Assembly (NCBI GenBank): GCA_964399415.1
Contig: CAYNQW010000001.1
Span: forward strand, 1 to 52,335
DNA from: an uncultured Hyphomicrobiales bacterium
GTDB lineage: Bacteria; Pseudomonadota; Alphaproteobacteria; Puniceispirillales; UBA1172
Reading direction: 5' to 3'
DNA length: 52,335 bases
Below are positions 9,434-47,308 of this stretch, one piece after another. Under the pieces are notes generated by a model that was not told the origin of the DNA, made no database searches, and was given only the letters and a program-made list of their open reading frames with translations. A program made the position numbers and the translations under genes. How positions within the stretch are numbered: position 1 is the stretch's first letter; every line of letters starts with the position of its first letter.

Positions 9434-11848
9434 TTAATCCTCGCCGCGTTGCTTGGTATTAAGCGGATCATAAAGCGCCTCAGCGGTGATGTGAGCCTGA
9501 CAGTCCTCATCCAGAATCCGGATGGTCAGCGCGGCATCATCCGCCACATCAGGATTGATGAAACCAAACGCAATATTGGCCTTCACCCGATGGCCATACC
9601 CTCCTGAGGTGACGCTACCGATCTGCTCACCATTACAAAAAATCCCATCACCAGCATGGGCAGGGGCATGATCTGTTTTCACCACCATCGTAACAAATCG
9701 CTTGCGAAGGCCTTGTTGCAATTGCGCTTCAAAACCCTCGCGGCCAATATACGCCTCTTTGTCCCGTTGATAGAAGCGATCCAAACCAGATTCAGCCGGG
9801 TTAAATTCGACCATCAAATCAGCTTTCCAATGGCGATAGCCTTTTTCCAGCCGCATGGATTCAGTGGCGTATAGCCCAAAGGGAGCAATGCCAAAACCTT
9901 CGCCCCCATCCATCAATTGCGTCCACATCAGATAAAGTTGTTCATTGGGAACATGGATCTCCCAAGTCATTTCACCCGAATAACTGATCCGCATCACCAT
10001 CGCTTCGGCATGCCCGATCACCACAGGCTTCACCGCCATCAACGGGAAGCCTTCATTCGACCAATCTTCATGCCCCGCCACGTTCATCAACACAGCCCGT
10101 GATTTAGGACCAGCCAAAACCAACACGGTATGCGATTGCGATAGGTTTTCGATGCTAATGTGATCCGGCAAATGAGCGGTGAGCCAATCGCGATCATGCC
10201 ATTCCGCCGCCGCCGCCGCGCCATACCAAATTTCATCATCGCCAAGCCGTGCCAATGTCGCCTCGCTTAAGACATTGCCTTTTTGGGTAAGCAAATAACT
10301 TAGGCTGACTTTACCTTCTTTCGGCATTCGCCCCGCGATCAGGCGATCCATCGCCTCAACCACCCCTTGACCGTGCAAGCGATAGCGGCTGAAACCTGAG
10401 ACTTCCATCAAGCCCACGCCATTGGCGATCGCTTGGACTTCACTGGCGATCACCGCTTCTCGTTCTGGCTGGAAGCGATAGCCTGGGATGGATTGATATC
10501 CTTCGGGCGGAAAGCAGAGGGCGCGTTCCCAACCATTGACGACACCGAATTCTGCCCCCATTGATTTCAGCAGGGGATAAAGCGGCGTTGTCCGCGCCAA
10601 CCGCCCAGCAGGCCGGTATTCATGCGGTTCGTGGTAGTGAAATTCCATCTGATAATCTTCAATCGCTTTGGCCATCGTAAAGCGCGTATTGGCGTATTGC
10701 GTGAACCGCCTTGGGTCAAGAAACCACGCGTCCCATTCACTTTCGCCATGAACGATTGTTTGAGCCAAAATCTTACCATGCCCCCCGCCTTCACCAATGC
10801 CAGCGCGCAGACCTAAACACGCAAAAGCATTGGTTTTGCAGGGGATAGGCCCCACCAGCGGCATACCATCCGCGGAATAAGTGATGGGGCCATTGACCAC
10901 GGTATGGATGCCTGTTTCGGTCAAAGCCGGCAGACGCTCAAAGATGCGTTCCATGTTATCAAGGCAACGATCCAAATCATTAGGGCAAAGCGCCATGGTG
11001 AAATCAGGATCAATCCCATCCATGCCAAAGGTTTTGCAGCCTTGCTCATAAACCCCTACCAGCAATCCCTTTTTTTCCTGCCGCGAATAAAAATCATCGC
11101 CCGGGTCTCGAATGATGGGAACCCGCTCTTCCATGGCTTCTAATGCCGGAATAGGATCGGTGAGAAAATACATATGCTCCATCGAGATAACGGGATGCTC
11201 CACGCCCATCATGCGACCGACTTCATTGACGCGATAACCCGTGGCATTAACGATCATCTCGGCGGTGATATCGCCGTTTTTAGTGTGGACGATCCATTCG
11301 CCATTGGCCTTTTGCGTCAGCGCTTCAACCGGATTAAAGCGGCTGATTTCAGCACCGGATTGACGAGCGCGGCGGGCAAGCGCTTGGGTTAATTGGCTGG
11401 GGTCAATATCACCATCCAGCGGATCCCACCACGCGCATTTGATGCCATCGGCTTTCATCAACGGATGGCGGCGCGCGGCCTCAGCCCCATCAATCAATTC
11501 AAAATCAATCCCCATGCCTTTGGCCATGCCAATATAGTGTTTGTAAATATCCATATGCCGGTCGGTATAACCCAATCGCATCCCGCCGGTGATGTGGTAA
11601 TTGATGGGGAATTCAGGGTCAGCGGCCAATTCCCGATAGAGATTGATCGAATGCCGCTTCAAGGCAACAAAGGTTTGATTGCCGCCAAATTGCGTGACTT
11701 GCGCCGCCGCGTGCCATGTTGAACCTGATGTCAATTCATCGCGCTCAACCAGCATGACATCCGTCCAACCTTCTTGGGTGAGGTGGTAAAGGGTTGAACA
11801 CCCGGCTATCCCGCCACCAATCACAACAACACGCGCTTGATTTCGCAT
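9434..11848 (-). CDS. dimethylglycine/sarcosine dehydrogenase family flavoprotein (FAD DAO domain + folate-binding GcvT domain)
   Basis: 804 aa. N-terminal VVVIGGGIAGCSTLYHL and the covalent-FAD-type motif GSTWHAAAQ. The C-terminal ~400 aa is aminomethyltransferase-like. Confidence 0.88.
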   Translation of the reverse strand: MRNQARVVVIGGGIAGCSTLYHLTQEGWTDVMLVERDELTSGSTWHAAAQVTQFGGNQTFVALKRHSINLYRELAADPEFPINYHITGGMRLGYTDRHMDIYKHYIGMAKGMGIDFELIDGAEAARRHPLMKADGIKCAWWDPLDGDIDPSQLTQALARRARQSGAEISRFNPVEALTQKANGEWIVHTKNGDITAEMIVNATGYRVNEVGRMMGVEHPVISMEHMYFLTDPIPALEAMEERVPIIRDPGDDFYSRQEKKGLLVGVYEQGCKTFGMDGIDPDFTMALCPNDLDRCLDNMERIFERLPALTETGIHTVVNGPITYSADGMPLVGPIPCKTNAFACLGLRAGIGEGGGHGKILAQTIVHGESEWDAWFLDPRRFTQYANTRFTMAKAIEDYQMEFHYHEPHEYRPAGRLARTTPLYPLLKSMGAEFGVVNGWERALCFPPEGYQSIPGYRFQPEREAVIASEVQAIANGVGLMEVSGFSRYRLHGQGVVEAMDRLIAGRMPKEGKVSLSYLLTQKGNVLSEATLARLGDDEIWYGAAAAAEWHDRDWLTAHLPDHISIENLSQSHTVLVLAGPKSRAVLMNVAGHEDWSNEGFPLMAVKPVVIGHAEAMVMRISYSGEMTWEIHVPNEQLYLMWTQLMDGGEGFGIAPFGLYATESMRLEKGYRHWKADLMVEFNPAESGLDRFYQRDKEAYIGREGFEAQLQQGLRKRFVTMVVKTDHAPAHAGDGIFCNGEQIGSVTSGGYGHRVKANIAFGFINPDVADDAALTIRILDEDCQAHITAEALYDPLNTKQRGED

Positions 11849-11948
11849 CTTTTTCCCTACTCTTATTGCCCGTATTTTATTTGCCGCATTCGCATTCTTC
11901 TTTCATATTAATCATAGGTTTAATCTGACCACAAACAGGAAAAGCGAC

Positions 11949-13520
11949 ATGGCTGATCCATTAAATCAAGACATCCCCAGATTATCCCGCCGAAGTGGCG
12001 GTCGATCAGCACGAGTGCAGGCGCGCACAACGCCAAGCGAGCAGCCAAACCCCTGCCCTCCCGGTCAAATTGGCGGCCAATATAAGCCACTTACCGATGG
12101 TGATTTGGTCAAAATTATTGATGCCGCTTTCCATCTTTTAGACAGTATGGGGATGGGCGATGTGCCGCGCCGATTTCAAGACCTCGCGCTGGCCAAAGGC
12201 GCTCACCTCAATGCGCGTGGGCGGCTTTGTTATTCGCGTGCTTTGGTGGAAGAGACCATTGATCGCGCCGCCAAAAGTTTTGTCTTATATGGCCGCGACC
12301 CTAAGCATGATCTCGAAATTGGCGGTGAGCGCGTCTTTTTTGGAACGGGCGGCGCGGCGGTGCAAACCCTTGATCTGGATAGCGGCATTTACCGGCCTTC
12401 GACCTTACGCGATCTCTATGATTTCACCCGCTTGATTGATACCCTTGATAATGTCAGTTGGTTCACCCGATGCTGTGTCGCAACCGATATTCCGGATATC
12501 ACTGATTTGGATGTTAACACCGCCTATGCCTTGTTGCGCGGCACCACCAAACATGTCGGCACCAGTTTCACCTTAGCGGAAAATGTCGCGCCGATCATTT
12601 CAATGTTTGATCAAGCCCTCGGCGGGGAAGGTGCTTTCCGCAAGCGCCCTTTCTGCAAAGCGCATATCAGCCCGGTGATTTCACCCATGCGTTATGGTGA
12701 GGATGCGGTGGATGTCACTTTTGCTTGCATTGAGCATGGTGTTCCCATCAATGCCATCATCGCCGCGCAGTCTGGGGCGACAGCCCCTGCCCCATTGGCT
12801 GGAATGTTGGCGCAGACCACCGCCGAAACGTTAGCCGGCTTAATGTTGGTCAATTTGATCGAGCCAGGTTACCCCATGATCTTTTCCAATTGGCCATTGG
12901 TCATTGATTTGCGTACCGGCGCGTTTTGTGGCGGCGGCGGTGAAATTTCACTGCTAAACGCGGCGTCAGGGCAAATCGCCAACCATTTGGGCTTGCCCGG
13001 CGGCGTGGCGTCATCCATGGCGGACGCGAAAGCGGTGGATGCCCAAATGGGCATGGAGAAAGCAATCTCTTCCTTAGCCGCAGGGCTTGCGGGATCAAAC
13101 CTGATCTATGAATCCGCCGGCATGATGGCCAGCCTTTTGGGGGCGTCTTTCGAAGCCTTTGTGCTCGACAATGAAATGCTCAGCCATATCCACCGCACCA
13201 TTCGCGGCATTGAAGTTAATGACGACACCCTCAGCATTGAAGCGATTGAGCAAGCGGTTTATGGCGAGGGGCATTTCCTAGGCGGGGATGACACCATCGC
13301 CGCCATGCAACGCGATTATTTCTACCCTACCTTAGCGGATCGCACAGACCCAGACACATGGGTTTATCAAGGGGCAGACGATATTTGGACGAAAGCCCGT
13401 GATCAAGCACGGCAAATCCTCGCCAGCCATCACCCTGATTATCTTTCCAAACACGCTGACGCTTGGATTCGGGATCGCTTCCATATTTTTGCTGAACTGA
13501 ACAAACAAAATTTATTCTGA
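11949..13520 (+). CDS. MttB (trimethylamine methyltransferase) superfamily protein, non-pyrrolysine type
   Basis: 523 aa uninterrupted ORF with no in-frame TAG. MttB-family length and blocks such as FGTGGAAV, ISPMRYGEDAVD, SMADAKAVDAQMGMEK and FLGGDDT. Confidence 0.85.
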   Translation: MADPLNQDIPRLSRRSGGRSARVQARTTPSEQPNPCPPGQIGGQYKPLTDGDLVKIIDAAFHLLDSMGMGDVPRRFQDLALAKGAHLNARGRLCYSRALVEETIDRAAKSFVLYGRDPKHDLEIGGERVFFGTGGAAVQTLDLDSGIYRPSTLRDLYDFTRLIDTLDNVSWFTRCCVATDIPDITDLDVNTAYALLRGTTKHVGTSFTLAENVAPIISMFDQALGGEGAFRKRPFCKAHISPVISPMRYGEDAVDVTFACIEHGVPINAIIAAQSGATAPAPLAGMLAQTTAETLAGLMLVNLIEPGYPMIFSNWPLVIDLRTGAFCGGGGEISLLNAASGQIANHLGLPGGVASSMADAKAVDAQMGMEKAISSLAAGLAGSNLIYESAGMMASLLGASFEAFVLDNEMLSHIHRTIRGIEVNDDTLSIEAIEQAVYGEGHFLGGDDTIAAMQRDYFYPTLADRTDPDTWVYQGADDIWTKARDQARQILASHHPDYLSKHADAWIRDRFHIFAELNKQNLF

Positions 13521-13539: not shown

Positions 13540-15201
13540 TTATTGCTGAGCCGCAATATTTTTGCTTCGCTCATCCAGCAAACGGCTAAGCCATGTTGGA
13601 TCCATTTCTGGAACAGACCCCAACAACAAATCCGTATAGGGATGATGCGGCGGCGTAAAGACTTCAGATTTCTGCCCTTTTTCAACAACCAACCCATCTT
13701 TCATCACCACCACCTGATCGGCAATGGCGCGTACAGTCGCCAGATCATGGGTGATGAACATATAGGAAAGATTAAGTTCTTCCTGCAGTTTATCCAGCAA
13801 TCTGAGAATTCCTTCAGCGACAATTTGATCAAGAGCGCTGGTTACTTCATCACAAATGATGATGCTTGGCTCAGCCGCAATCGCACGAGCAATCCCGATG
13901 CGCTGCTTCTGGCCTCCAGAGAGTTCTGATGGCAACCGGTCAATATATTGATTAGGTTCCATCTCAATCATTCTCAGGAGATCACAAACCCGCTCATCAA
14001 GCGCCTTACCTTTGAGCCCAAGAAACATATTCGCTGGACGCCCAAGAAGTTCGCGTATTCGAAGTTTAGGATTAAGAGCCGTATCCGCCATTTGATAAAT
14101 CATTTGGATACGACGCAGTTGATCGCGGTTTCGATTTCCAAATTTGGACGGCAGTGTTTCGCCTTCAAACAGAACTTCACCTTCACGCGGGTTGAGAAGA
14201 CCGGTAATCACCCGAGCGGTGGTTGATTTCCCACTGCCCGACTCACCCACAACAGCAACGGTTCTGCCTTTGCTGATGCTGAAAGAAACATTTTTGAGAA
14301 CATCGACATGGCTTGAATAGCCGGCAGTGACGTTTCTTAATTCAAGCACAGGGGCATTTTTTTTATCTTCAATTTTTTCTTTGCGGACAAATTTACGAAC
14401 CGCCCAAAGGGATTTGGTGTAGTCATCTTGAGGCGATTTTAGCATTTTATTGGTCGATGCTTCTTCAACCTCATTGCCTTTAAGAAGAACCTTAATCTTA
14501 TCGGCCATTTGAGCAACCACGGCGAGATCATGGCTGATGTAAATGGCCGCCGTGTTAAATTCTTTGACAATATCGCGGATGGCGGCAAGAACTTCAATTT
14601 GAGTCGTCACGTCAAGCGCGGTGGTAGGCTCATCAAAAATGATAAGGTCTGGTCGGCATGACAACGCCATTGCCGTCATGGCGCGCTGAAGTTGCCCACC
14701 AGAAACTTGGTGAGAATAACGAAGCCCAAAATTATTTGGATCAGGCAGGTTCATCTTATCAAACAGTTCTATGGCATAAGACACCGCCTCATCACGCCCC
14801 ATGACACCATGCAATAAAGGCGCTTCAGCAAACTGATCAATAAGTTTATGGGCAGGATTAAAACTAGCCGCCGCGGATTGAGCGACATAAGCAATCCGAC
14901 GGCCACGCAAATGCCGCAACTGATCTTTGCTCTGCGAGAGCAGATCAATGCCATCAAAGACAATCGACCCTTCTGTAATCTTGCACCCATCGCGGGTAAA
15001 CCCCATCGCAGCAAGACCAAGCGTTGATTTCCCAGCGCCCGATTCCCCGATCAAACCCAGCACTTCGCCGCGATTAAGATCCAAATCGACCGAATTTACA
15101 ATATCAATCCAATCTTCATCACTGCGCCCCTTGATTGATACATTCCGCATCTTCAATAAAGGTTCTGGTTTCTTGGATGTTGGAGTGTTTTGACCGTTCA
15201 T
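13540..15201 (-). CDS. fused double ABC ATPase of a peptide/opine-type (Dpp/Opp) importer
   Basis: 553 aa with two complete cassettes: GESGAGKST/VSGGQLQR/IIFDEPTTALD and GESGSGKST/LSGGQKQR/IICDEVTSALD. Confidence 0.92.
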   Translation of the reverse strand: MNGQNTPTSKKPEPLLKMRNVSIKGRSDEDWIDIVNSVDLDLNRGEVLGLIGESGAGKSTLGLAAMGFTRDGCKITEGSIVFDGIDLLSQSKDQLRHLRGRRIAYVAQSAAASFNPAHKLIDQFAEAPLLHGVMGRDEAVSYAIELFDKMNLPDPNNFGLRYSHQVSGGQLQRAMTAMALSCRPDLIIFDEPTTALDVTTQIEVLAAIRDIVKEFNTAAIYISHDLAVVAQMADKIKVLLKGNEVEEASTNKMLKSPQDDYTKSLWAVRKFVRKEKIEDKKNAPVLELRNVTAGYSSHVDVLKNVSFSISKGRTVAVVGESGSGKSTTARVITGLLNPREGEVLFEGETLPSKFGNRNRDQLRRIQMIYQMADTALNPKLRIRELLGRPANMFLGLKGKALDERVCDLLRMIEMEPNQYIDRLPSELSGGQKQRIGIARAIAAEPSIIICDEVTSALDQIVAEGILRLLDKLQEELNLSYMFITHDLATVRAIADQVVVMKDGLVVEKGQKSEVFTPPHHPYTDLLLGSVPEMDPTWLSRLLDERSKNIAAQQ

Positions 15202-15208
15202 GTATCAA

Positions 15209-16132
15209 CTATTCCTTAAGTCCACTTGCGCGATGCAAAAGCCAATCAACGACAAAATTCACTGCAATCGTTAAGAAGGCGATCGCGCCCGCGGGAATAA
15301 GCGGAGTAATATCGCCAAAACTGATAAGTTCGGCATTGTCACGAACCATAGACCCCCAGTCAGCGGTCGGCGGTTGCAACCCTAAACCCATAAAGGAAAG
15401 CGCAGAAATCATGAGAAAGACGAAGCAGAATCTCAACCCAAATTCGGCGGCAAGCGGCGCCATCGCATTGGGGAGAATCTCACGCCTGATTAAGAAAAAT
15501 GAATTTTCGCCTCTTAATTTCGCGGCTTCGATATAGTCCAATTGAACAATATTAAGCGCAACGGCACGTGCTATTCGGAATACCCGGGTTGAATCAATGG
15601 TTGCAATAACCAGAATAAGGCTTAACGCCGATGTGCCAAATATTGTCAGCATCAACAGCGAAAAAATCAGTGACGGTATTGCCATAAGAACATCAACAAT
15701 GCGGCTCAAGGTCTGATCGACAATCCCTGATTTCAGCGCGGCATAAATGCCCAGAAGGGTGCCGATAAGGAAGGCTAGCGACGTGACAAGAAAAGCAATC
15801 CCCACTGTATTGCGAGCGCCGTAAATCAAGCGGCTGAAAACATCACGCCCCAGATTATCCGTGCCAAGCCAATAGGTGGATGACCAAGGCTCAAAAGAAC
15901 CGGCAAGGATATCCGATTCCCCATAAGGGGCAATAATCGGCGCAAAAATAGCGCAAGTGATATAAACAAAAATAACAAATATGCCGAGGCTGGCCGTCAG
16001 AGGAAGCGTCCGAAGAATTTTAGCAAGATTTCTTCCCACCAATCGCACCAGAATTTCACGAAACAAATACCCTACGCCCAGCGCCGCACAAACAGTAACC
16101 AAAACCCAGAGAAGAAAATTTAGAATAACCAT
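15209..16132 (-). CDS. ABC permease (DppC/OppC-like)
   Basis: BPD-type permease. I chose the ATG at 16132 (MVILNF...), preceded by AGGAG, because the longer track ORF (to 16252) overlaps the upstream permease. Confidence 0.88.
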   Translation of the reverse strand: MVILNFLLWVLVTVCAALGVGYLFREILVRLVGRNLAKILRTLPLTASLGIFVIFVYITCAIFAPIIAPYGESDILAGSFEPWSSTYWLGTDNLGRDVFSRLIYGARNTVGIAFLVTSLAFLIGTLLGIYAALKSGIVDQTLSRIVDVLMAIPSLIFSLLMLTIFGTSALSLILVIATIDSTRVFRIARAVALNIVQLDYIEAAKLRGENSFFLIRREILPNAMAPLAAEFGLRFCFVFLMISALSFMGLGLQPPTADWGSMVRDNAELISFGDITPLIPAGAIAFLTIAVNFVVDWLLHRASGLKE

Positions 16133-16145
16133 CTTCTTTCTCCTA

Positions 16146-17099
16146 TTATCGTTGCTGCATGAGGCGGGGGTTGGATATCGTAGAAATAATATCCGCGAGA
16201 AGATTGAGCCCGACATAAGCAGACGCAAAAACAAGTGACGTTGCTTGCACAACGGGAATATCCCTGAATTTCACGCCGTCAACCATCAGTTGCCCAAGCC
16301 CGGGAAACACAAAAACAATTTCAACAATAACAACACCCGTAATCAGATAGGCAAGATTAAGGGCAACCACATTTACGATAGGCGCAATGGCATTCGGCAA
16401 CGCATGCCAAGTGATAATTCGGGCAGGCTTGACGCCTTTCAGATGCGCCATCTCAATATAAGGAAGAGCAAGAATATTGATAATTGCCGCACGCGTCATT
16501 CGCATCATATGCGCCGTCACCACAAGCGTTAGGGTCAGGGCAGGCAAAAAACAAATATAGAGTTTTTCTAACAATGGCGTATTGGCATTGATATTTGCCA
16601 TGGATGGGAAATACCCCGTTAACGCCAAAAGATAGATCAGGATATAGCCGACAAAAAATTCCGGCATGGATATCGACGCCAAAGCAGACGCGTTTGAAAT
16701 TCTATCAAAATATCCATTGCGGAAAAGCGAGGCGAGCATGCCAAGTATAAGCGAAAGCGGCACCGCAATGCATGCCGTGTACAATGTCAAAAATAATGTG
16801 TTTTCAAGGCGCGGCGCGATCAACCCAATAATTGGTTTTCGTAAGGCGAGGGAATTTCCAAAATCACCTTGAAGAATCCCTCCAAGCCAATTCAAATATC
16901 GGATATGCGCCGGTAAGTCTAAACCAAGTTCGCGCCTAATTGCCGCCACCGTTTCAGGCGTTGCTTGTTGCCCGAGGATCTCTTGAGCAAGGTCTCCCGG
17001 CAAAGCCTCCACAGACAGGAAAATAAGCAATGACAACATAATCAGCGTAAGAACACCGAGTGCGAGCCGCTTAACGATCATGATCAGTAGATTGTTCAT
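16146..17099 (-). CDS. ABC permease (DppB/OppB-like)
   Basis: 317 aa with the typical DppB N-terminus IVKRLALGVLTLIMLSLLIFLSVEALPGD and 6 TM helices. Confidence 0.9.
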   Translation of the reverse strand: MNNLLIMIVKRLALGVLTLIMLSLLIFLSVEALPGDLAQEILGQQATPETVAAIRRELGLDLPAHIRYLNWLGGILQGDFGNSLALRKPIIGLIAPRLENTLFLTLYTACIAVPLSLILGMLASLFRNGYFDRISNASALASISMPEFFVGYILIYLLALTGYFPSMANINANTPLLEKLYICFLPALTLTLVVTAHMMRMTRAAIINILALPYIEMAHLKGVKPARIITWHALPNAIAPIVNVVALNLAYLITGVVIVEIVFVFPGLGQLMVDGVKFRDIPVVQATSLVFASAYVGLNLLADIISTISNPRLMQQR

Positions 17100-17178
17100 C
17101 TAATATGTTTATCCATCAATTAAAGATAATGAAATCAATTAAATAGGAATGCGCGGAAAAGATAACAATTTAGAAAAT

Positions 17179-17202
17179 GGAAAGCCATAAAAATGGCTTT
17201 CC
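17179..17202 (-). terminator. perfect 10-bp hairpin after the family-5 SBP gene (attenuator/terminator)
   Basis: GGAAAGCCAT-aaaa-ATGGCTTTCC. T-rich flanks on both strands. Lies between the SBP stop (17228) and the first permease start (17099). Confidence 0.6.
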
Positions 17203-17227
17203 AATAGATTTTTTTCGAGCCGATGGC

Positions 17228-18895
17228 TTAAGCAGACCACCAACGTCTAGAACAAAGATGACCGTCAAGTTCCCAGTTATTCGCAACTTGTCCAGGAACA
17301 CCCACGGAAGAACGGTAACCCATGATCTCACTCAAGAATACAGGGAGGATCAAGCCGCCATCGGTGTGAACAATACGCTGCATTTCAACATATTTTTCAC
17401 GACGCTTGGCTTCATCTGTTTCAGAACGAGCCTCAACAAGGAGTTTGTCAAAGGATGAATTATTCCAATGCGTGTCATTCCAATCAGCTTTTGAGTAATA
17501 AATCTGAGAGAAGACCCAATCTTCGGTTGGGCGGCCACTCCAGTAACAAGCTGACCATGGCTTGACCATCCAGACGTTTGACCAATATCCGTCATTCGGC
17601 TCACGAACAACTTCAATGTCAATGCCTGCCGCTCTTGCCGATTCACGCATCAGCGCGCCGGCATCAACAGCACCAGCGAAACCGGTATCAGCAGCATGGA
17701 ACTGCACCGACAAACTGCTCAGCCCAGCCTCTTTCAGGTAGAACTTTGCTTTTTCCGGATCATACTCACGCTGAGGCAATTCATCTTCCGTGGCGCGGAA
17801 GTAGTTAGCAGGACCAACAGGGCTGTCATTCCCTAACTGTCCATAACCAAAGAAGATTTTGTCCAGAAGTTCTTGACGGTTAACAATATGCTTCATGGCA
17901 TTGCGAACGTTTTGATTGGTGTATGGGTCCGCGTCACAAAGCATTGGCATTGTTGCTTGTTTATTCCCCGTCGAAATCAGCGTCTTCACGTTAGGCATAT
18001 TGCCAAGACGCTTTGCTGTCTTCGCTGGAACGTTGTTGATCGCATCAACCGCGCCTGTCGAAAGTGCTGACATACGAGCTGTTGGATCATTGATGCCCAA
18101 GGTTTCAATTTCGTCAAAGTAGGAATCATTGCCGGTGTTCCAGTAGTTTGCAAACTTCTTGGTTAGAGTCCGCACACCTGGCTCATGCTCAGCAAGAACA
18201 TAAGCACCAGCACCTACACCAGACTGCCAGTCAATGGTTTCGTCACCGTTTGAAGGGCAAATGTTGAGGTGATAATCTGACAGAAGAATTGGAAGGTCAC
18301 CATTACCTTCATTCAATTCAATGATGACACCATTCTTACCATCAGCACGGATTTCTTTAATCCCAGACACAACACCACTGCCGCCTGATTTTGAATCAGG
18401 ACCCATATGGTGGCGAATTGAATCCACAATGTCGGTTGAATCAAGCGTCTTACCATTATGGAATTCTACGCCCTGACGAACATTAAATTTCCATGTCTTG
18501 GCACCATTTGAAGGCTCCCAACTCTCAACAAGGTCACCTTGCACAGCACCATTTGGCATGATCTTTGTCATGTTTGGTCGAACCTGACCCATAGACACGT
18601 TGATCATGTATGCATCAAGAATCTGGCCTGGATCCAGCACATCGCTGGTGGCACCACCGGTAATCCCAAGTCTTAGACGTCCACCTGCTTTTGGTGTGGC
18701 GGCAAGCACTTCTTTAACAACCGTTGATGCACCGGTAAGTGATACACCAAGAGCCAGCGCTCCTGTCATAAAACCACGGCGCCCAATTTTACCTGAGGCA
18801 TAACTGGCCTGAAGATTATCTGCTTTGATCTGACTTTCCTTATCAGCAATCTCCGCAGAAATTTTGTATTTTTGGCAATTTTTGGATTTTTCCAA
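17228..18895 (-). CDS. family-5 ABC substrate-binding protein (peptide/nickel/opine type) with Tat signal
   Basis: 555 aa. Twin-arginine motif GRRGFMTGALALG. TTG start at 18895 with GGGAGG 5 nt upstream. The n-region before RR is unusually long (about 37 aa). Confidence 0.88.
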   Translation of the reverse strand: MEKSKNCQKYKISAEIADKESQIKADNLQASYASGKIGRRGFMTGALALGVSLTGASTVVKEVLAATPKAGGRLRLGITGGATSDVLDPGQILDAYMINVSMGQVRPNMTKIMPNGAVQGDLVESWEPSNGAKTWKFNVRQGVEFHNGKTLDSTDIVDSIRHHMGPDSKSGGSGVVSGIKEIRADGKNGVIIELNEGNGDLPILLSDYHLNICPSNGDETIDWQSGVGAGAYVLAEHEPGVRTLTKKFANYWNTGNDSYFDEIETLGINDPTARMSALSTGAVDAINNVPAKTAKRLGNMPNVKTLISTGNKQATMPMLCDADPYTNQNVRNAMKHIVNRQELLDKIFFGYGQLGNDSPVGPANYFRATEDELPQREYDPEKAKFYLKEAGLSSLSVQFHAADTGFAGAVDAGALMRESARAAGIDIEVVREPNDGYWSNVWMVKPWSACYWSGRPTEDWVFSQIYYSKADWNDTHWNNSSFDKLLVEARSETDEAKRREKYVEMQRIVHTDGGLILPVFLSEIMGYRSSVGVPGQVANNWELDGHLCSRRWWSA

Positions 18896-20928: not shown

Positions 20929-21104
20929 AATTTGCCCTTCTCTTGATCGTTCACTGTTTAGGCTGATCTACTCTGAAGCCGTGCATTTGCAATTTTTCGG
21001 CATAAGATGACTAAAATTTTAAGTCTCTGCGCGTGTAACATCCTAGGCTTAACATCAGACATGTGTGATCATGCATGAATGAAACCGGATGGAAGGAACA
21101 CCAA

Positions 21105-22589
21105 ATGTCAGACCTCATTGATTATAAAATGTTCATCAATGGCGAATGGATGGACTCAAGCGATGGCAAACGTTTTGAGAGCATTAACCCGGCAACGGAA
21201 CAGCCATGGTGTACGGTGCCCGAAGCAACCGCAGATGACATTAATCGCGCGGTTGAAACAGCCCATCAAGCGTTCACATCCGGCGAATGGGCAAGCCTAA
21301 CCCCGACCGCCCGAGGAAAATATTTGCGCCGCCTTGCCGAACTTCTTGACCAGAAATCCGAACATCTTGGCCGTATTGAGACAATAGACACCGGTAAAAT
21401 GCTCAAAGAAACACGATGGCAGGCCAAATATATCGCAGAGTTTTTTCATTTTTATGCTGGATGTGCCGACAAGATCAGCGGCCAAACCTTGCCCATCGAC
21501 AAGCCTGATATGCTGACCATGACCCTCCGAGAACCACTTGGGGTTGTGGCCGCGGTCGTGCCTTGGAATTCACAATTGTTTCTTGTTGCCGTGAAGATTG
21601 GCCCCGCACTTGCCGCAGGCAATACGGTGGTGCTGAAAGCATCCGAACACGCGTCAGCCGCCATGCTTGAATTTGGTAAAATTATTGAGGAGGCTGGCTT
21701 TCCGAAAGGCGTGGTGAATATTGTCACTGGCCATGCTGACCCTTGCGGTAAGGTGCTGACCTCTCACCCGCTGGTTCAGCGGATCAGTTTTACCGGCGGC
21801 ACCAGCGCGGCAAAACATGTGGTGCGCAATTCCGCAGAGAATTTTGCTCAAGTATCGCTTGAATTGGGCGGCAAATCACCCTTCATCGTTTTTGGTGATG
21901 CCAATATCGAAAGCGCCGTGAATGGATCAATCGCCGGTATTTTTGGCGCAAGCGGACAGAGCTGTGTTGCTGGCTCAAGGCTGTATTTGCACAACAGCAT
22001 CGCTGATGAATTTCTTGACCGGATGCTGACACAAGCAAAGCAAATTCGCATCGGCGATCCTCTTGAAGAAGACACACAGATGGGCCCGCTTGCCACCAGC
22101 GCGCAGATCGATCATATCGAACGGCAAGTCAAACTGGCGCAAGAAGAAGGCGGAACCGTGCTGACCGGCGGCAAGCGTCCTAAGATGCCGAATGCCGGCT
22201 GGTATTATGAACCCACCATCATCGAATGCCCTCGCCAAGACATGACCATTGTGGATACCGAATTGTTTGGCCCGGTGCTAAGCGTGTTGCGCTTTGACGA
22301 AGAAGATCAAGTCACCACCCTTGCCAATGACAGTAAATTTGGCTTGGCGGCGGGAGTCTTTACCAAAGACAGCGCCCGCGCGCTCCGAATGACAAAATCA
22401 TTGCGGGCGGGCATCGTTTGGGTGAACACTTACCGTGTTGTTTCACCCATCGCTGAATTCGGTGGCTTCAAAGAATCTGGCTATGGCCGCGAAAGCGGTA
22501 TGCAGGCTATTTACGATTACACCAGACCCAAAACAGCATGGATCAATATTTCTGATGAACCCATGGCTAATCCCTTTGTGATGCGCTAA
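21105..22589 (+). CDS. NAD(P)-dependent aldehyde dehydrogenase
   Basis: Catalytic blocks ELGGKSP and GQSCVAGSR. The ATG at 21105 is preceded by GGAAGGA. The track ORF starts at 21075. Confidence 0.92.
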   Translation: MSDLIDYKMFINGEWMDSSDGKRFESINPATEQPWCTVPEATADDINRAVETAHQAFTSGEWASLTPTARGKYLRRLAELLDQKSEHLGRIETIDTGKMLKETRWQAKYIAEFFHFYAGCADKISGQTLPIDKPDMLTMTLREPLGVVAAVVPWNSQLFLVAVKIGPALAAGNTVVLKASEHASAAMLEFGKIIEEAGFPKGVVNIVTGHADPCGKVLTSHPLVQRISFTGGTSAAKHVVRNSAENFAQVSLELGGKSPFIVFGDANIESAVNGSIAGIFGASGQSCVAGSRLYLHNSIADEFLDRMLTQAKQIRIGDPLEEDTQMGPLATSAQIDHIERQVKLAQEEGGTVLTGGKRPKMPNAGWYYEPTIIECPRQDMTIVDTELFGPVLSVLRFDEEDQVTTLANDSKFGLAAGVFTKDSARALRMTKSLRAGIVWVNTYRVVSPIAEFGGFKESGYGRESGMQAIYDYTRPKTAWINISDEPMANPFVMR

Positions 22590-24679
22590 TCGTTGAGGGT
22601 TATCACCGCATCAACAGCAACAACCCCATCTTCCAGAATAAAGAGAGGATTGATCTCAATCAGGTCAATCCTCTCATCAACCATAATCATTTCAGCGAGA
22701 TCATGGATGGCGGTTATGATAGCGGCGCGATCACCGGCTGTAGCCCCGCGATAACCGTCGATGATGCGGCTGACCGTGAGACTGCGGATGGCGCGGTCAA
22801 TTTCCTCTCGGCCAGCCGGAAGGATAAGCGTTGTCGCTTCTTCAAGAATTTCCACAAGCACGCCGCCGCTCGCGATGGTAAGCAGAATCCCAAAAATAGG
22901 ATCACGCCGGAGGCTGACCATGAGTTCCGCCACCACGCCAGAGACCATTTTTTCGATCAGAAACCCTTTTTGCCTCGCCTTGGGGGCAAGGCGGCTGACG
23001 TCTTCCTTGATGCGCTGAACAGATCGCTCCAGCATCTCGCGATCCGTGATGTTCAAAACAACCGCGCCCATCTCCGATTTATGGGGAAGGTCGGGGCTGA
23101 CCATTTTGACGGCAAGGGGATAGCCCAGCGCATGGGGAAGTTCTAGCGGCAAATCACCTTCAGTAAAGAGGTTTTCAGGGATAGCAACGCCTGCCGCCGA
23201 CAGCATTTTTTTGGCTTCAACTTCATCAAGCGATACAGCCTTGGCGTTATCTTGCCGAGACGCAAGATGAAGCGGCGGTGGGGGCGATGCTAGGATTTCC
23301 TGCCTTCGCTTACCATATTTAACCGCAGAGGCGATGGATTTGACGCAATCGCCAATCCCCTGCATCGGCGCGATCCCATGTTCAATCAGAAAATCCCGGG
23401 TTTCGACATCCAGATTCTCTGCAATCGTGCTGCACACCGCGCCCGGGATGCCATGCGTCTTTGCGGCATTGAGAAAACTGATGGAATCATTGCGGTAATA
23501 TGGCTTGCTTTCATCCAGCCCTGCCGCCGGATAATCTTGAACAATCACCGTTACATCATATCCGTCATCAAACATGGCGCTGAACACCGGCTCGGTCTTC
23601 TCCGGCATGCCCCAGATCGGGGTGGTGTAGTCCAGCGGGTTTGAAACCGTGGCGGTAAGCGGCAACATCTCCCGCAACCTTTTACCAGCGGCAACGCTTG
23701 GACGCGGCAATTCTAGGCCTAGTTTTTCAGCATTATCCGCCAGCATCGTGGCACCGCCACCAGAACAAGCGAGACCCGCAAGAGCCGCACCAGAAGGGAT
23801 GCCGCTTACCGTGATGAATTTAAGGGTTTCAAGCAGGAGAGACGGCTCATCCACTCGGATGATCCCAAGCCGATCAAACAACGCATCATAAACCTCATCC
23901 GTTCCCGACAGTGACCCCGTATGGCTGATGGTAAGTTCACTTCCAATCCGAGACGTGCCTGTTTTCAGCGCAACGATAGGAATGTTGTTTTCAAGGGCTT
24001 TCAACGCCGCGGCCTCAAAAAGCCTGCTGTCTCGGATCCCCTCCACATGCAAGCCGATGGCACTGACTTCCGGCATCTCTGCAAAACAGTCGATGAAATC
24101 ATCTATCTTAAGCACCGCCTGATTGCCCAGCGACACCATATAACTCATAGGAAGAGACCGCTGAGCCATGGTCAAATCCGAGGATAACATCCCACTCTGG
24201 GTGATGATCGCCGCCCCGCGACCCGTAAACTTGCCGCCATGGGCAAAAGGCCAAAGCGCGACCTTATCGCGGTAATTGATCACGCCATAACAGTTAGGGC
24301 CGACCAGCGCCATATCCCCCGCCGCTTGGATCAATTCGGTTTCATAGGCGGCTCCGTCATCACCAATTTCACCAAAGCCTGCCGTGTAACAGACCGCTCC
24401 GCCTGCTCCCATTTGGTTTAATGTTCTTAGGCTTGCGATCGCCTGCTCCCTCGGAACCGCCACAAAGACGGCATCGGGGGCTTCGGGCAAATCTTCGATA
24501 CTCTTGAAACAAGGAAAGCCGCCGATGCTCTCACGTTTAGGATTCACCGGCCAAAACGGACCATCATATCCAATCCGTTTGCATTCTCCGGCAACCACCT
24601 CAGCATCACGCCCCCCAAGAACCGCAATATGCCGGGGACGAAGCAGCCTTAGCAGGTTATGGGCGCGGGACTCGCTCAT
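22586..24679 (-). CDS. ADP-forming acyl-CoA synthetase (CoA-binding + ATP-grasp fusion); candidate gamma-butyrobetaine/carnitine-CoA ligase
   Basis: N-terminal CoA-binding IAVLGG and succinyl-CoA-synthetase-like domains. C-terminal ATP-grasp GYPLAVKMVSPDLPHKSEMGAV. The start at 24679 forms an ATGA overlap with the acyl-CoA dehydrogenase stop. Confidence 0.85.
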   Translation of the reverse strand: MSESRAHNLLRLLRPRHIAVLGGRDAEVVAGECKRIGYDGPFWPVNPKRESIGGFPCFKSIEDLPEAPDAVFVAVPREQAIASLRTLNQMGAGGAVCYTAGFGEIGDDGAAYETELIQAAGDMALVGPNCYGVINYRDKVALWPFAHGGKFTGRGAAIITQSGMLSSDLTMAQRSLPMSYMVSLGNQAVLKIDDFIDCFAEMPEVSAIGLHVEGIRDSRLFEAAALKALENNIPIVALKTGTSRIGSELTISHTGSLSGTDEVYDALFDRLGIIRVDEPSLLLETLKFITVSGIPSGAALAGLACSGGGATMLADNAEKLGLELPRPSVAAGKRLREMLPLTATVSNPLDYTTPIWGMPEKTEPVFSAMFDDGYDVTVIVQDYPAAGLDESKPYYRNDSISFLNAAKTHGIPGAVCSTIAENLDVETRDFLIEHGIAPMQGIGDCVKSIASAVKYGKRRQEILASPPPPLHLASRQDNAKAVSLDEVEAKKMLSAAGVAIPENLFTEGDLPLELPHALGYPLAVKMVSPDLPHKSEMGAVVLNITDREMLERSVQRIKEDVSRLAPKARQKGFLIEKMVSGVVAELMVSLRRDPIFGILLTIASGGVLVEILEEATTLILPAGREEIDRAIRSLTVSRIIDGYRGATAGDRAAIITAIHDLAEMIMVDERIDLIEINPLFILEDGVVAVDAVITLND

Positions 24680-25836
24680 GCTCCCAGCGGGCGAAGAATA
24701 GAACGGGTAATGATATGACGCTGAATTTCTGACGTTCCATCCCAAATCCGCTCAAGACGGGAATCTCGCCAAAGACGGTGGATCGGCATTTCTTCCATCA
24801 GCCCCATCCCGCCAAAAATCTGCACCGTATCATCGGCTGTCTTGCAAAGCATTTCCGAACAATAGAGTTTAACCATGGCGGCATCGCTATCCGACATCAC
24901 GCCGGCATTAGCCTTTTCGATGGCGTCCTTGACCAGCAGTTTACCGGCACGAAGCCCCACCGCCATATCGGCAAGTTTGAAACCTGTTGCCTGAAACCTG
25001 CCGATGGGCTGATTAAACTGCTTCCGATTTGCCGCCCAATCGCAGGCCATTTGGTAAATTCGATCAGCCTTGCCGCAGCAGGTTGCGCCGACCCAAATTC
25101 TCCCCATGCCAAGCCACTTGCCCGACAGGTCAAGCCCTTTGCCCTCTTCGCCAAGGATATGCGCATCGCTGAGCCGCACATCGTTAAAATCCAGACGGAA
25201 ATTAAGATAGCCACGATAACTTGTGCAATTGTATCCAATGCTGACATCAAAGCCTTTCATCCCCACATCAACCAGAAAAGCCGTAATTCTTGGCCGCTTG
25301 CCATGGGCGGTTTCATCATGGCCTGTCACGGCGAATACAATCGCAAAATCCGGCATCACTGGACCTGAGATAAAATGCTTTGAGCCATTGAGAATCCAAT
25401 CCGCGCCATCACGTTTGGCGTTGGTTTTCATGGACATAATATCTGAACCTGCTTCTGGTTCGCTCAGCCCAAAGAGCTCACGCTTATCGCCTTTGACGCA
25501 GGGCAGAAGATATTGCTCGCGTTGATCACCTTCAGTTGCCAATAAAATTTCCGTAGGCCGAGCCACCCATGAATGAAGAGCATGGGACGTCTTACCAAAC
25601 TCATATTCAATAATTGCCATCTGCTCATAATCAAGCCCGCCTCCGCCAATCTCTGACGGGAGGTTTGCCGCAAAAAGCCCGACTTCCTTTGACCGCGCTT
25701 CAATCTGACGACCCAGTTCAATCGGCACTTGCGCGTCTCTGTCGACCTGCTCTTCATGGGGGAAGATTTCTTCTTCCATGAACCGGCGAACGGTTTCCGC
25801 TAAGAGTTGGTTTTCATGGTTGAGATGATCTAGCAT
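24676..25836 (-). CDS. acyl-CoA dehydrogenase; candidate gamma-butyrobetainyl-CoA dehydrogenase
   Basis: 386 aa. Blocks LSEPEAGSD and GGMG, and the C-terminal catalytic region RIWDGTSEIQRHII. Confidence 0.9.
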   Translation of the reverse strand: MLDHLNHENQLLAETVRRFMEEEIFPHEEQVDRDAQVPIELGRQIEARSKEVGLFAANLPSEIGGGGLDYEQMAIIEYEFGKTSHALHSWVARPTEILLATEGDQREQYLLPCVKGDKRELFGLSEPEAGSDIMSMKTNAKRDGADWILNGSKHFISGPVMPDFAIVFAVTGHDETAHGKRPRITAFLVDVGMKGFDVSIGYNCTSYRGYLNFRLDFNDVRLSDAHILGEEGKGLDLSGKWLGMGRIWVGATCCGKADRIYQMACDWAANRKQFNQPIGRFQATGFKLADMAVGLRAGKLLVKDAIEKANAGVMSDSDAAMVKLYCSEMLCKTADDTVQIFGGMGLMEEMPIHRLWRDSRLERIWDGTSEIQRHIITRSILRPLGA

Positions 25837-25846
25837 GGTGATGCTC

Positions 25847-26749
25847 CTAAGCCTGCTTTATGAGGCCAAGTTTTTCTCTGGCTTCCGCCGGTGTCAGCAC
25901 ACGCCCACCCATCCGATCAATGATTTCAACCGCCCGTTCGACCAATTGTGCGTTTGTTGCCAACACCCCACGGTCAAGATAGATGTTATCTTCAAGGCCA
26001 ACACGCACATTGCCGCCCATGGCCACGGCAGCGGCCGCCATTGGCATTTGCATCCGCGATATTCCAAACGATGCCCAAGACGCGTTCGCGGGCAATTCAT
26101 CTTTCATCACCTTCATTGTGTCGACAGACTGATCCGCCCCCCATGGAATCCCCAAGCAGATCTGGAACATTGGCGGCTCATTAATCAAGCCTTCGGCAAT
26201 CATCTGCTTTGCAAAGCGGATATGGCCGAGTTCAAATACTTCCAGTTCAGGTTTAACCCCAAGGCTTTGAACAATCTCTGCCATCTTGCGTAAATATGGC
26301 GGCGTTGAGATGTAAATTTCATTTCCGTTGCCAAAATTCATCGTCCCGCAATCCAAACTACAGATTTCAGGTTTGATTTCGATCACATGGGCAAGGCGCT
26401 CTTCAGGGCCGATCATATCTGTTCCCGGGCCACATATCGCTGGGTTGTCATCACTTGGCACCCAGTCTCCTCCCATGCCTGCCGTCAAATTGACCACGAC
26501 ATCCGTATCACTGGAACGAACGCGATCCACCGTTTCCTTGAACAACGCCACATCACGCGACCCTTTGCCGGTCTCGGGATCACGGACATGGATATGAGCC
26601 GCCGATGCCCCAGCCTTGGCCGCCTCAATCGCGGCATTGGCAATCTGTTCAGGTGTTACGGGAACATGCGGGCTTCGTCCGGTTGTATCCCCGGCGCCTG
26701 TTACCGCACAGGTAAGGATTACTTCGTAATTCATCAGCCTCTCCAACAA
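25847..26749 (-). CDS. cdhC: beta-keto acid cleavage enzyme (BKACE/DUF849); candidate dehydrocarnitine cleavage enzyme
   Basis: 300 aa TIM barrel with N-terminal LTCAVTGAG and [15 protein letters not shown]. Divergent from a CdhR-like regulator, in the same locus as an L-carnitine dehydrogenase. Confidence 0.8.
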
Positions 26750-26858
26750 TTAAGAGTTTTATCGACTATAATCATTCACCTCGCTGTTTTTTTCAGTTGT
26801 AAATTTTTCGCCAATAGATCAAATTTTTGGATAGATTTGATGTATAAGGGCTAATCTT

Positions 26859-27917: not shown

Positions 27918-27961
27918 ATTTGCCGTCTCACCCTTGATTGCCCAAACAAGCATCAAGATTT

Positions 27962-28906: not shown

Positions 28907-28907
28907 G

Positions 28908-29869: not shown

Positions 29870-29992
29870 TTACAGGCATCAAAAATAAGGCCATCACCAA
29901 CTTAAGTGATTGAGAAAACGAAAAAATTGTGCCTTGCATATTTTTTCTACTTATGGATGAATAGACGGATAAATCATATAGGGAGGATTGAT

Positions 29993-30952: not shown

Positions 30953-30968
30953 ATCGCCTAAATCTCAC

Positions 30969-31004
30969 GAATGGCAGCGTGAATATAAACGCTGCCATTC
31001 TTTC
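30969..31004 (+). terminator. 12-bp perfect hairpin after proX (attenuator/terminator)
   Basis: GAATGGCAGCGT-gaatataa-ACGCTGCCATTC followed by TTTC. 17 nt after the proX stop. Confidence 0.6.
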
Positions 31005-31086
31005 AAAAAGTCCATCAATACATTTTTTATTTTTGACGCGCCCTATTTCCGACAAGTGTTGATGATAAACCAGAGAGACTTTAATC

Positions 31087-35041: not shown

Positions 35042-35118
35042 CTTTATCTTTCCTCCATGTTTAATTTGCTTTCACATCCGGCTCGTTATCCGTCCGGTGA
35101 TAAGAATTATTCTGACTT

Positions 35119-36459: not shown

Positions 36460-36469
36460 GGTGCATCTC

Positions 36470-37153: not shown

Positions 37154-37154
37154 C

Positions 37155-44662: not shown

Positions 44663-44694
44663 TTTAACGCTTCTTTAACTGTTGTTCCAAAAAC

Positions 44695-44719
44695 AGCAAG
44701 GCCCTTAAAAGGGCCCTGC
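44695..44719 (-). terminator. hairpin plus U-tract between tauA and tauB (attenuator)
   Basis: On the minus strand: GCAGGGCCC-ttttaa-GGGCCTTGC (one G.U pair) followed by TGTTTTTGG. Confidence 0.55.
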
Positions 44720-44741
44720 CAAAGAGTGTTTGAACAGCGAG

Positions 44742-45903: not shown

Positions 45904-45933
45904 TTGGTGTTTCGGATGGCTAAAACGACGCGT

Positions 45934-47250: not shown

Positions 47251-47308
47251 CGCCGCCTCCCCGTTCTAATTTCTCACTATTTACGTTACTGCCACAACAA
47301 TCCACTGA

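Follow-up and report, generated by a model that had tools for sequence, protein, structure and literature searches.

The subject of this study is a methyltransferase gene and its flavoprotein partner in the DNA of an uncultured Hyphomicrobiales bacterium (GTDB lineage Alphaproteobacteria, Puniceispirillales, UBA1172; GenBank assembly GCA_964399415.1). The stretch analysed, here called the window, comprises 52,335 nucleotides of contig CAYNQW010000001.1. The gene at 11949-13520 (+ strand, ATG start) encodes a 523-amino acid (aa) protein of the MttB superfamily that is a member without pyrrolysine (non-Pyl) and belongs to an orthogroup that we call clade W. Two features of this orthogroup are new. 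Its pocket, as read from alignments, is altered, lacks an Arg otherwise reported as universal and carries an invariant Glu, and its members form, together with a flavoprotein and a LysR regulator, a module that is conserved across two proteobacterial classes. The indications that clade W is probably not the betaine enzyme are new as well. On balance, our data lean towards clade W being a corrinoid-dependent methyltransferase (MT1 enzyme) with a methyl acceptor encoded in trans, which would act on a quaternary amine together with a partner resembling dimethylglycine dehydrogenase (DMGDH). We regard it as an even call that such an enzyme is specific for a substrate not yet known in the MttB family.

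A non-Pyl MttB homologue

The 523-aa protein matches the Pfam family MTTB (PF06253) with an E value of 7.3e-103, residues 15-509 covering positions 1-490 of the 500-position profile, and is a full-length member of this TIM-barrel family. Its top matches in the PDB were MtgB (9yce/2qne, E 1e-55) and MttB (7xcl, E 3e-51); 4YYC was also matched. The open reading frame (ORF) carries no in-frame TAG and ends in a TGA stop codon, and the score against the equivalog model of Pyl-dependent MttB (TIGR02369) is 341.6 bits, below the cut-off of 525 bits. Codon 357, which aligns with the pyrrolysine UAG of true MttB, is an ATG for Met that starts at nucleotide 13017. A match to the Rfam element PYLIS_3 (RF02510) begins exactly at this codon and extends over 13017-13116 (+ strand); its 38.6 bits are just above the gathering score, which is 38. 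It looks like retained homology of the coding sequence and not like a functional recoding signal. Among characterised proteins, the Pyl-containing MttB of Methanosarcina barkeri (7XCL) is marginally the closest in sequence (32% identity) and, besides the PYLIS_3 score, shares a Gly in the substrate pocket that is described below. It differs from the window protein in having Pyl (UAG) in place of Met, in the TIGR02369 score and in the MttC-type neighbour that the window gene lacks. We presume, from these sequence relationships, that the 523-aa protein is an MT1 enzyme for a quaternary amine.

The predicted substrate pocket differs from that of MtgB

The glycine betaine methyltransferase MtgB of Desulfitobacterium hafniense has been solved with betaine, where Y97 and F356 make cation-pi contacts and R312 and H348 hold the carboxylate; all are needed, and the R312L and H348E variants are inactive (Picking et al., JBC 2026, PMC13080624). 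The authors call Y97/R312/H348/F356 "a minimum set" for glycine betaine binding, and they report that R312 is kept in all characterised non-Pyl members, namely MtcB, MtpB, MthB and MtyB (PMC13080624). We read the corresponding positions from pairwise alignments and from a MAFFT alignment in which 79 clade members were combined with reference sequences. The window protein carries G/G/E/L at these four positions and, as stated above, Met at the Pyl position. Across clade W the replacements are nearly invariant, with G in 79 of 79 sequences at Y97, G in 78 of 79 at R312, E in 79 of 79 at H348 and L in 78 of 79 at F356; the orthologues, too, carry Met where Pyl would be. As a control, the Sinorhizobium meliloti paralogue 4YYC, which is 44.7% identical to D. 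hafniense MtgB, keeps the Y, R and H. Its gene is surrounded by genes for a cobalamin-binding protein, DUF1638, a methyl-tetrahydrofolate:cobalamin methyltransferase, metF2, an ASKHA/RamA-like protein and bmt. This co-localised corrinoid cluster is the one described by Mausz et al. (PMC12478193). The earlier note on this DNA had proposed an active-site alignment against these enzymes; the comparison with MtgB and Pyl-MttB agrees with a non-Pyl member, and the betaine contacts are not retained.

The window protein is 27-29% identical to MtgB-type proteins (28.7% to D. hafniense MtgB) and 32% to true MttB. With D. hafniense MtgB (2QNE/9YCE) it shares the PF06253 family, the non-Pyl state, an alignment over about 460 residues and the expected role, the first demethylation of a quaternary amine. 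The two differ in the four contact residues (Y97G/R312G/H348E/F356L), in the adjacent corrinoid protein that the window gene lacks and in the host, which here is an aerobe-type proteobacterium. The 523-aa protein is therefore probably not a glycine betaine enzyme of the MtgB type, as far as its sequence can tell. A different reading is that clade W is a glycine betaine:corrinoid methyltransferase after all, an MtgB isoenzyme with another binding mode that handles betaine derived from carnitine or gamma-butyrobetaine (GBB). In that case, the neighbour would be a true DMGDH and the pair would run betaine to dimethylglycine to sarcosine. We consider this a serious but rather unlikely alternative. 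All four MtgB contacts are replaced, including changes at R312 and H348 that abolish activity in MtgB, and S. meliloti has a separate, R312-bearing MtgB-like gene beside a gene for a corrinoid protein.

The Glu that replaces His at the H348 position could also point to a substrate other than a betaine, such as protonated trimethylamine, dimethylsulfoniopropionate (DMSP) or another sulfonium compound, or a trimethylammonium compound bearing a sulfonate or amino group, with the Glu taking the place of residues that bind an acid. This Glu is invariant, clade W is slightly closer to MttB than to MtgB, and the Gly at the Y97 position is common to clade W and MttB. We nevertheless rate this reading as improbable; further evidence on both sides comes from the gene neighbourhoods given below.

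The flavoprotein partner and the divergent intergenic region

The gene at 9434-11848 (- strand, ATG start) encodes an 804-aa flavoprotein of the DMGDH/sarcosine dehydrogenase (SARDH) family. The protein combines an FAD-binding amine dehydrogenase domain with a GcvT-type folate-binding domain (Pfam DAO, FAO_M, GCV_T and GCV_T_C) and can be aligned over its whole length with human and rat DMGDH (5L46 and 4P9S; E 2e-145 to human 5l46). It thus shares with the mammalian enzymes the architecture of four domains, and it keeps the GSTWHAA stretch in the alignment to both structures. In DMGDH, this stretch presumably holds the flavinylated His. The full-length resemblance to mammalian DMGDH speaks for the isoenzyme reading. 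Dimethylglycine as the substrate of the 804-aa protein is nevertheless putative, unlike in mammalian DMGDH, and the betaine-induced dmgdh of Phaeobacter inhibens is another paralogue (c28230). Similarity to mammalian DMGDH was considered as a test of true DMGDH identity and did not discriminate: the 804-aa protein scores 489 bits and the rhizobial paralogue LZK74_28420 of S. meliloti scores 574 bits, so that the partner is not the paralogue nearest to mammalian DMGDH, which counts against the isoenzyme reading. No residue-level rule for carboxylate binding or specificity was found in the human DMGDH paper. The 804-aa flavoprotein is presumed, from its domains, to be the oxidative demethylase of the tertiary amine that the MttB homologue would release.

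In S. meliloti, a DMGDH-like gene near an MttB gene of a related clade (L084, 6944-13464; locus numbers with L are our own) is the one that scores 574 bits. About 2.5 kb between these two genes are without listed annotation.

The intergenic region between the two divergent genes is exactly 100 bp long (11849-11948). It contains the motif TTCATATTAATCATAGG at about 11902-11918, which is common to close relatives. In locus L003 it is found almost unchanged upstream of the DMGDH-like gene, and related copies lie near the MttB start in L003 and, partly kept, in L002. The motif is a candidate operator. The MttB ATG is preceded by the Shine-Dalgarno-like sequence AGGAAA. No match to the sigma-70 consensus was seen in the 100-bp gap, and a scan of the region for promoter and terminator consensus sequences gave nothing above chance. 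The arrangement that the earlier note had described, a 523-aa non-Pyl MttB ORF without in-frame TAG, a 100-bp divergent gap and an 804-aa FAD/GcvT gene of DMGDH type, was borne out in its coordinates and its Pfam domains.

The pair is conserved in Alpha- and Gammaproteobacteria

Orthologues were collected with one genome per species, which gave 80 loci whose proteins are 65-91% identical to the window protein. Clade W refers to the 79 sequences in the alignment, and pairing was counted in the 67 sources with enough flanking DNA. The closest loci, with the gene order of the window, come from uncultured Alphaproteobacteria and Puniceispirillales. Further members are found in Rhizobiaceae, Hyphomicrobiales, Rhodospirillales, Kiloniellales and Rhodobacterales among the Alphaproteobacteria, and in Arenicellales, Granulosicoccaceae and Oceanospirillaceae among the Gammaproteobacteria. 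A DMGDH-like gene adjoins the MttB gene at 57 of the 67 informative loci, so the pairing, whose conservation the earlier note had proposed to examine, holds in both classes. The pair is divergent in 43 loci, 24 of them with a gap of at most 217 bp and 19 with one gene in between, mostly a LysR regulator. It is co-directional in about 11 loci, mostly of Gammaproteobacteria, where the DMGDH-like gene precedes the MttB gene with a gap near zero, whereas the Alphaproteobacteria have the divergent form. The LysR regulator is the third conserved member (42 loci); it was looked for in the window and is absent there. Cultured examples of the arrangement are found on plasmids of Leisingera methylohalidivorans, Roseobacter litoralis, a Mesorhizobium sp. 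and Ruegeria conchae, and on the P. inhibens chromosome.

A flavin amine dehydrogenase cannot oxidise a quaternary nitrogen, which lacks a lone pair, until a nucleophile has taken off one methyl group. This requirement would explain why MttB and DMGDH-like genes travel together.

Corrinoid machinery in cis and in trans

Characterised relatives of MtgB pass the methyl group to a corrinoid protein, and we searched for this machinery in several ways. The Pfam scan took in every window ORF except those that merely shadow another gene, and it showed no B12-binding (PF02310), pterin-binding (PF00809), MtrH, ASKHA/RamA or DUF1638 domain. tblastn with S. meliloti MtgC, MtgD, RamA-like, DUF1638, MetF2 and Bmt proteins gave no match in the window or in 88 loci. 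A scan of all six frames of the window for the B12 motif DxHxxG...SxL...GG was also negative, and no cobalamin riboswitch was found in the window at the Rfam gathering threshold. The adjacent set of corrinoid protein, methyl-corrinoid:tetrahydrofolate methyltransferase (MT2) and activase that goes with an MtgB-type system is thus absent from the window, as had been noticed before from the letters alone, and from the 80 orthologous loci.

These results have to be seen against recent work on aerobes. Ruegeria pomeroyi, when grown aerobically on glycine betaine, makes MtgB1 (SPO2108), MtgB2 (SPO2134), the cobalamin-binding protein MtgC (SPO2160) and the pterin-binding methyltransferase MtgD (SPO1863), with RamA and DUF1638 proteins co-induced; mtgC and mtgD mutants show neither growth on betaine nor methionine synthesis (Mausz et al., PNAS 2025, PMC12478193). 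The mtgB, mtgC and mtgD genes are not co-located in R. pomeroyi and P. inhibens, mtgC is also reported in SAR116, and genomes carry up to seven PF06253 ORFs, which the authors took to suggest further substrates (PMC12478193). In P. inhibens, mtgB1 has been deleted, and MtgBCD was found to be widespread in Rhodobacterales and SAR116 (Hammer et al., bioRxiv 10.64898/2025.12.19.695462). The view of the earlier note that non-Pyl MttB chemistry has not been established in aerobes is therefore outdated. Because the mtgBCD genes are scattered in aerobic roseobacters, the lack of corrinoid genes in cis is expected and not anomalous.

Clade W carriers agree with this picture. P. inhibens has mtgC, mtgD, ramA and DUF1638 genes elsewhere on its chromosome, and L. 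methylohalidivorans and R. litoralis, which have clade W on plasmids, also encode, according to Dataset S2, MtgC homologues of 90-92% identity. MtgC is thus present in all three cultured clade W strains with data, and SAR116 genomes score for Mtg proteins in Dataset S2. A trans-encoded methyl acceptor system is, in our analysis, the most likely arrangement. This was one of two acceptors suggested in the earlier note; direct, corrinoid-free transfer to tetrahydrofolate (THF), the other, found no positive support.

Such a corrinoid-independent reaction, in which the methyl group would go directly to THF, perhaps on the GcvT domain of the partner, or to another acceptor, appears very unlikely to us. 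It would fit the observation that over about 80 loci and the window the constant partners are only the THF-binding flavoprotein and the LysR regulator and never a corrinoid protein, as well as the loss of the Arg that all characterised corrinoid-dependent non-Pyl members have. In Dataset S2, Citreicella sp. SE45 and likewise Oceanicola sp. S124 show an MttB-family match of an unplaced clade and no MtgC entry. On the other hand, the reviewed members MttB, MtgB, MtpB, MtcB, MtyB and MthB include no corrinoid-independent enzyme, in roseobacters a scattered location of mtgB, mtgC and mtgD is documented as the rule, and the co-occurrence with MtgC in the three cultured strains speaks for a corrinoid acceptor. 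Methyl transfer from a quaternary amine generally needs a supernucleophile such as Co(I). We give an equally slight chance to clade W and its DMGDH-like partner being a self-contained module for a non-acidic or otherwise new quaternary amine that has no dedicated corrinoid protein.

The P. inhibens orthologue

The clade W orthologue of P. inhibens DSM 17395 is AFO92232.1/WP_044041610.1. In a related P. inhibens chromosome of 3.78 Mb, the gene is found at 2.62 Mb, beside a DMGDH-like gene, a LysR regulator and an OpuAC-type transporter. The P. inhibens paralogues are mtgB1 (RS07270), mtgB2 (RS08190), mtgB3 (PGA1_RS12685) and mtgB4 (RS04260, at 0.884 Mb) (Hammer et al., bioRxiv 10.64898/2025.12.19.695462). 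Scaling by tag number places RS12685 at about 2.63 Mb; mtgB1 RS07270 lies at about 1.5 Mb. Since the position of RS12685 fits the 2.62 Mb of the orthologue, the orthologue maps to mtgB3 and, by the same positional result, not to the validated MtgB1 (PGA1_c14630, SPO2108). Of the best 120 matches (at least 81% identity) to the R. conchae clade W protein, many of which are unnamed, none could be recognised as R. pomeroyi DSS-3.

On betaine, mtgB3 showed a log2 fold change (log2FC) of -0.67, compared to +7.0 for mtgB1 and +7.1 for the separate dmgdh c28230, and a double mutant of mtgB1 and gbcAB in which mtgB3 is intact did not grow on betaine (bioRxiv 10.64898/2025.12.19.695462). The sole rise of mtgB3 was observed in the algal demise phase, with a log2FC of +2.5 (bioRxiv 10.64898/2025.12.19.695462). 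Neither betaine induction nor a requirement for growth on betaine is thus seen in the published data, which are those of the P. inhibens orthologue, a protein that is 64% identical to the window protein and comes from another bacterial order. The isoenzyme reading loses ground here, as mtgB3 is not induced by betaine, does not rescue the double mutant, and is not accompanied by the dmgdh that P. inhibens induces on betaine. The rise during algal demise would agree with a substrate other than a betaine.

Gene neighbourhoods and candidate substrates

Genes for carnitine and GBB catabolism accompany the pair in several genomes. In two gammaproteobacterial loci (L062 and L076), acyl-CoA dehydrogenase, CoA ligase, DMGDH-like and MttB genes are co-directional and contiguous and appear to form operons, and in L062 homologues of BKACE, carnitine dehydrogenase and hydratase lie upstream as well. 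A CoA ligase homologue is found about 1.6 kb upstream of the pair on the opposite strand in L069, and BKACE and carnitine dehydrogenase homologues lie 4-8 kb from the pair in L020. In R. conchae, hydratase, ligase and dehydrogenase genes and a GlxA-type regulator directly adjoin the pair, and in the window the carnitine/GBB genes are 9-17 kb away from it. GbdR/GlxA-type regulators and OpuAC-type transporters are frequent neighbours. Carnitine, GBB or betaine made from them are possible substrates, since such genes stand beside the pair in some genomes. The operons and neighbours of L062, L076, L069 (with its gap), R. conchae and the window, the regulators and the betaine transporters all add to the isoenzyme reading, as does the lack of any other betaine demethylase in the window.

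In P. inhibens and Leisingera, the binding protein next to the module (L090, 12713-13675, and L081, 11611-12573) is a close homologue of the DMSP-binding protein DmpX (PDB 7YLE, E 1e-136), with Tyr200 replaced by Phe. The Y200F change abolished DMSP binding in RnDmpX (PMC10030565). The replacement is consistent with a changed ligand, and our guess from the sequence is an ammonium compound with a carboxylate. DMSP itself, which the homology to DmpX had brought up as a clade W substrate, is unlikely in view of the Tyr200-to-Phe change and the nitrogen-specific DMGDH-type partner. For the reading with a non-betaine substrate, the DmpX homologue and the genes for monomethylamine use in the window (see below) are points in favour. 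The Tyr200Phe change counts against it, a DMGDH-type partner needs an N-methyl amine and not a thioether, and in our judgement trimethylamine uptake would have no obvious need of a betaine-type ATP-binding cassette (ABC) importer.

The preferred reading, a corrinoid-dependent MT1 acting on a quaternary amine with its acceptor in trans, has to be weighed against several points. Out to 10 kb from about 80 clade W orthologues there is no gene for a corrinoid protein, MT2 or activase, and the corrinoid dependence of the 523-aa protein is suggested by homology and by co-occurrence in only three cultured strains. The pocket was read from sequence alignments only, at about 28% identity. The orthologue maps to mtgB3 by chromosome position and by the product name given by the submitter, not by sequence identity, and the missing betaine induction of mtgB3 is no proof of inactivity on betaine. 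Furthermore, the genomic context favours betaine, or alternatively carnitine or GBB themselves, because the carnitine/GBB pathway ends in glycine betaine. Taking both sides together, the substrate is more likely to be another trimethylammonium compound, or betaine bound differently within carnitine/GBB regulation, than betaine used in the manner of MtgB or MtgB1. Of the substrates that had been suggested for a missing first demethylation step, glycine betaine is thus doubtful given the four replaced contacts and the mtgB3 data, while carnitine and GBB stand as possible ones.

Related MttB-family loci

A related MttB clade, 43% identical to the window protein, likewise travels with DMGDH-like genes, and a similar pairing is found in S. 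meliloti. On the megaplasmid of R. pomeroyi DSS-3 (L085, 7974-18270), a LysR gene is followed by an apparent operon led by an MttB-family gene of this clade (43% identity). The operon continues with a class III aminotransferase, two DMGDH-like flavoproteins and an Xsc-like thiamine pyrophosphate enzyme (401 bits against a cut-off of 620). The pocket of the MttB-family protein reads G/S/I/Q/L. From its gene content, the operon looks like a complete route of demethylation, deamination and C-C cleavage for a quaternary amine.

Another MttB orthogroup, with the pocket T/R/L/H/G, was seen on plasmid pB of C. sphaeroides (L088, 9881-17815) and in L087 and L094. It is always beside genes for a D-amino-acid-oxidase-type flavoprotein, an aldehyde dehydrogenase and a DHDPS-family protein; a GntR gene is near in L088 and L094, and the C. 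sphaeroides locus has an enolase-superfamily (HpbD-like) gene too. Judged by this neighbourhood, the orthogroup probably serves aerobes as a methyltransferase for proline betaine or hydroxyproline betaine. A paralogue of Ruegeria sp. B32, used as a homologue query, led to a different orthogroup, which has a D-amino-acid-oxidase-type flavoprotein, an aldehyde dehydrogenase, DHDPS and GntR as neighbours, pointing to proline or hydroxyproline betaine, and which is not located beside guaA, whereas SPO2108 is.

The S. meliloti loci L084 and L086 come from CP090106.1, listed in PLSDB as "Sinorhizobium meliloti strain Ak57 plasmid pSymB". This replicon is 3.72 Mb long, bears the cluster of bmt, cobalamin-binding protein and MtgB-like genes and behaves like a chromosome, and the plasmid label is probably mistaken. 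Literature searches for the locus tags PGA1_c25540-c25560 and for COG5598 in SAR11 gave nothing useful.

Other genes of the window

Next to the MttB gene and convergent with it are the genes of an Opp/Dpp-type ABC transporter (13540-18895, - strand), for which Pfam shows a fused ATPase, two permeases and an SBP_bac_5 binding protein. Homologues adjoin the pair in L003, L012 and L068 and lie 4-8 kb away in L029, and on the short contig L004 only a homologue of the binding protein is beside the pair. The transporter is a possible importer for the module. The permease ORF at 15209-16252 (- strand) has a listed TTG start that overlaps the upstream permease gene (16146-17099, - strand) by about 100 bp, and translation probably begins at a codon further downstream.

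The carnitine/GBB catabolic gene set occupies 21075-29711. It was assigned by Pfam and by best NCBIfam matches, all of which are below the equivalog cut-offs, so that the carnitine/GBB context claimed earlier is upheld at the family level. The set comprises a betaine-aldehyde dehydrogenase (BADH-like), an ADP-forming CoA ligase, an acyl-CoA dehydrogenase resembling crotonobetainyl-CoA dehydrogenase, BKACE, a GbdR/CdhR-like regulator, and L-carnitine dehydrogenase-like and crotonobetainyl-CoA hydratase-like proteins. It may be the context that feeds the module. An OpuA/ProX-type quaternary-amine ABC transporter follows at 29906-33701 (+ strand), with genes for a binding protein, an ATPase and a permease according to Pfam. 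Orthologues of its binding protein (75-80% identity) are located 3-6 kb from the clade W pair in L025, L028-L030, L033, L035, L040 and L042. In agreement with the earlier note, which saw no bhmt or gbcAB, the Pfam scan of the window ORFs showed no Rieske-type gbcA, no Bhmt/S-methyl-transferase domain and no other betaine demethylase.

At 33734-38048 (- strand) there is a gmaS-like gene that resembles type III glutamine synthetases (TIGR03105, 668 bits), and after it come genes with Glu_synthase, GXGXG and GATase domains. By these matches the genes are gmaS-mgsABC, predicted to serve monomethylamine use via gamma-glutamylmethylamide and N-methylglutamate. Seen with these genes, the whole region has the look of an island for the catabolism of methylated amines. 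The genes at 41941-49941 encode an NMT1-type ABC transporter, an omega-aminotransferase, a regulator of the MocR/GntR-aminotransferase type and a phosphate acetyltransferase. The omega-aminotransferase scores 616 bits as an AptA equivalog, for which the cut-off is 500. Together the genes look like a utilisation cluster for taurine or a beta-alanine-type amine; no xsc is present in the window. A molybdopterin oxidoreductase ORF that begins at 50003 runs off the 3' end of the window.

Proposed reaction sequence and relation to known systems

In the sequence of reactions that we propose, the quaternary amine would be bound in the TIM-barrel pocket of the MttB homologue, and one N-methyl group would be transferred to the Co(I) of a trans-encoded corrinoid protein of the MtgC type, common with the split methionine synthase. 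MtgD would then move the methyl group to THF, and RamA and DUF1638 proteins would re-reduce the oxidised cofactor. The resulting tertiary amine would pass to the divergently transcribed DMGDH-like flavoprotein, which would transfer the next methyl group to THF, giving 5,10-methylene-THF and reduced flavin. We infer the order of the reactions, the substrate class and the corrinoid dependence of the 523-aa protein from the evidence given above.

MttB-superfamily MT1 enzymes that differ in quaternary-amine specificity and use one common corrinoid system are already known, and they have recently been extended to aerobes. With the aerobic MtgBCD systems, clade W shares an MttB-family enzyme, genes for the corrinoid protein, MT2 and activase located elsewhere, and several PF06253 paralogues per genome. 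It differs in that its orthologue mtgB3 is classed by the authors among "related uncharacterized methyltransferases" and cannot replace mtgB1. The MtpB, MtcB, MtyB and MthB proteins of Eubacterium limosum, for proline betaine, carnitine, GBB and phosphocholine, are likewise substrate-specialised paralogues in a multi-paralogue genome, and in both cases one corrinoid protein is possibly common to several paralogues. By their published description, the E. limosum enzymes have R312 for the acidic group of the substrate, whereas clade W has not; choline is even phosphorylated before it is used by MthB (PMC13080624, PMC12155760).

Betaines, carnitine, choline derivatives and other methylated amines serve as a major currency that links phytoplankton with heterotrophic bacteria. 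The aerobic, cobalamin-dependent removal of the first methyl group was recognised only in 2025, and several uncharacterised MttB paralogues per genome were noted there. In the light of our results, metagenomic surveys should not label all PF06253 genes "mtgB/glycine betaine demethylase". Should the very unlikely self-contained module turn out to be true, it would give the MttB superfamily a mode of reaction that is new to it, in aerobic marine Proteobacteria. Clade W, which is widespread in SAR116-like bacteria, roseobacters, rhizobia and Arenicellales, is a defined target in the search for a new substrate, and such a substrate would be a further link of vitamin B12 with marine nitrogen and carbon cycling.

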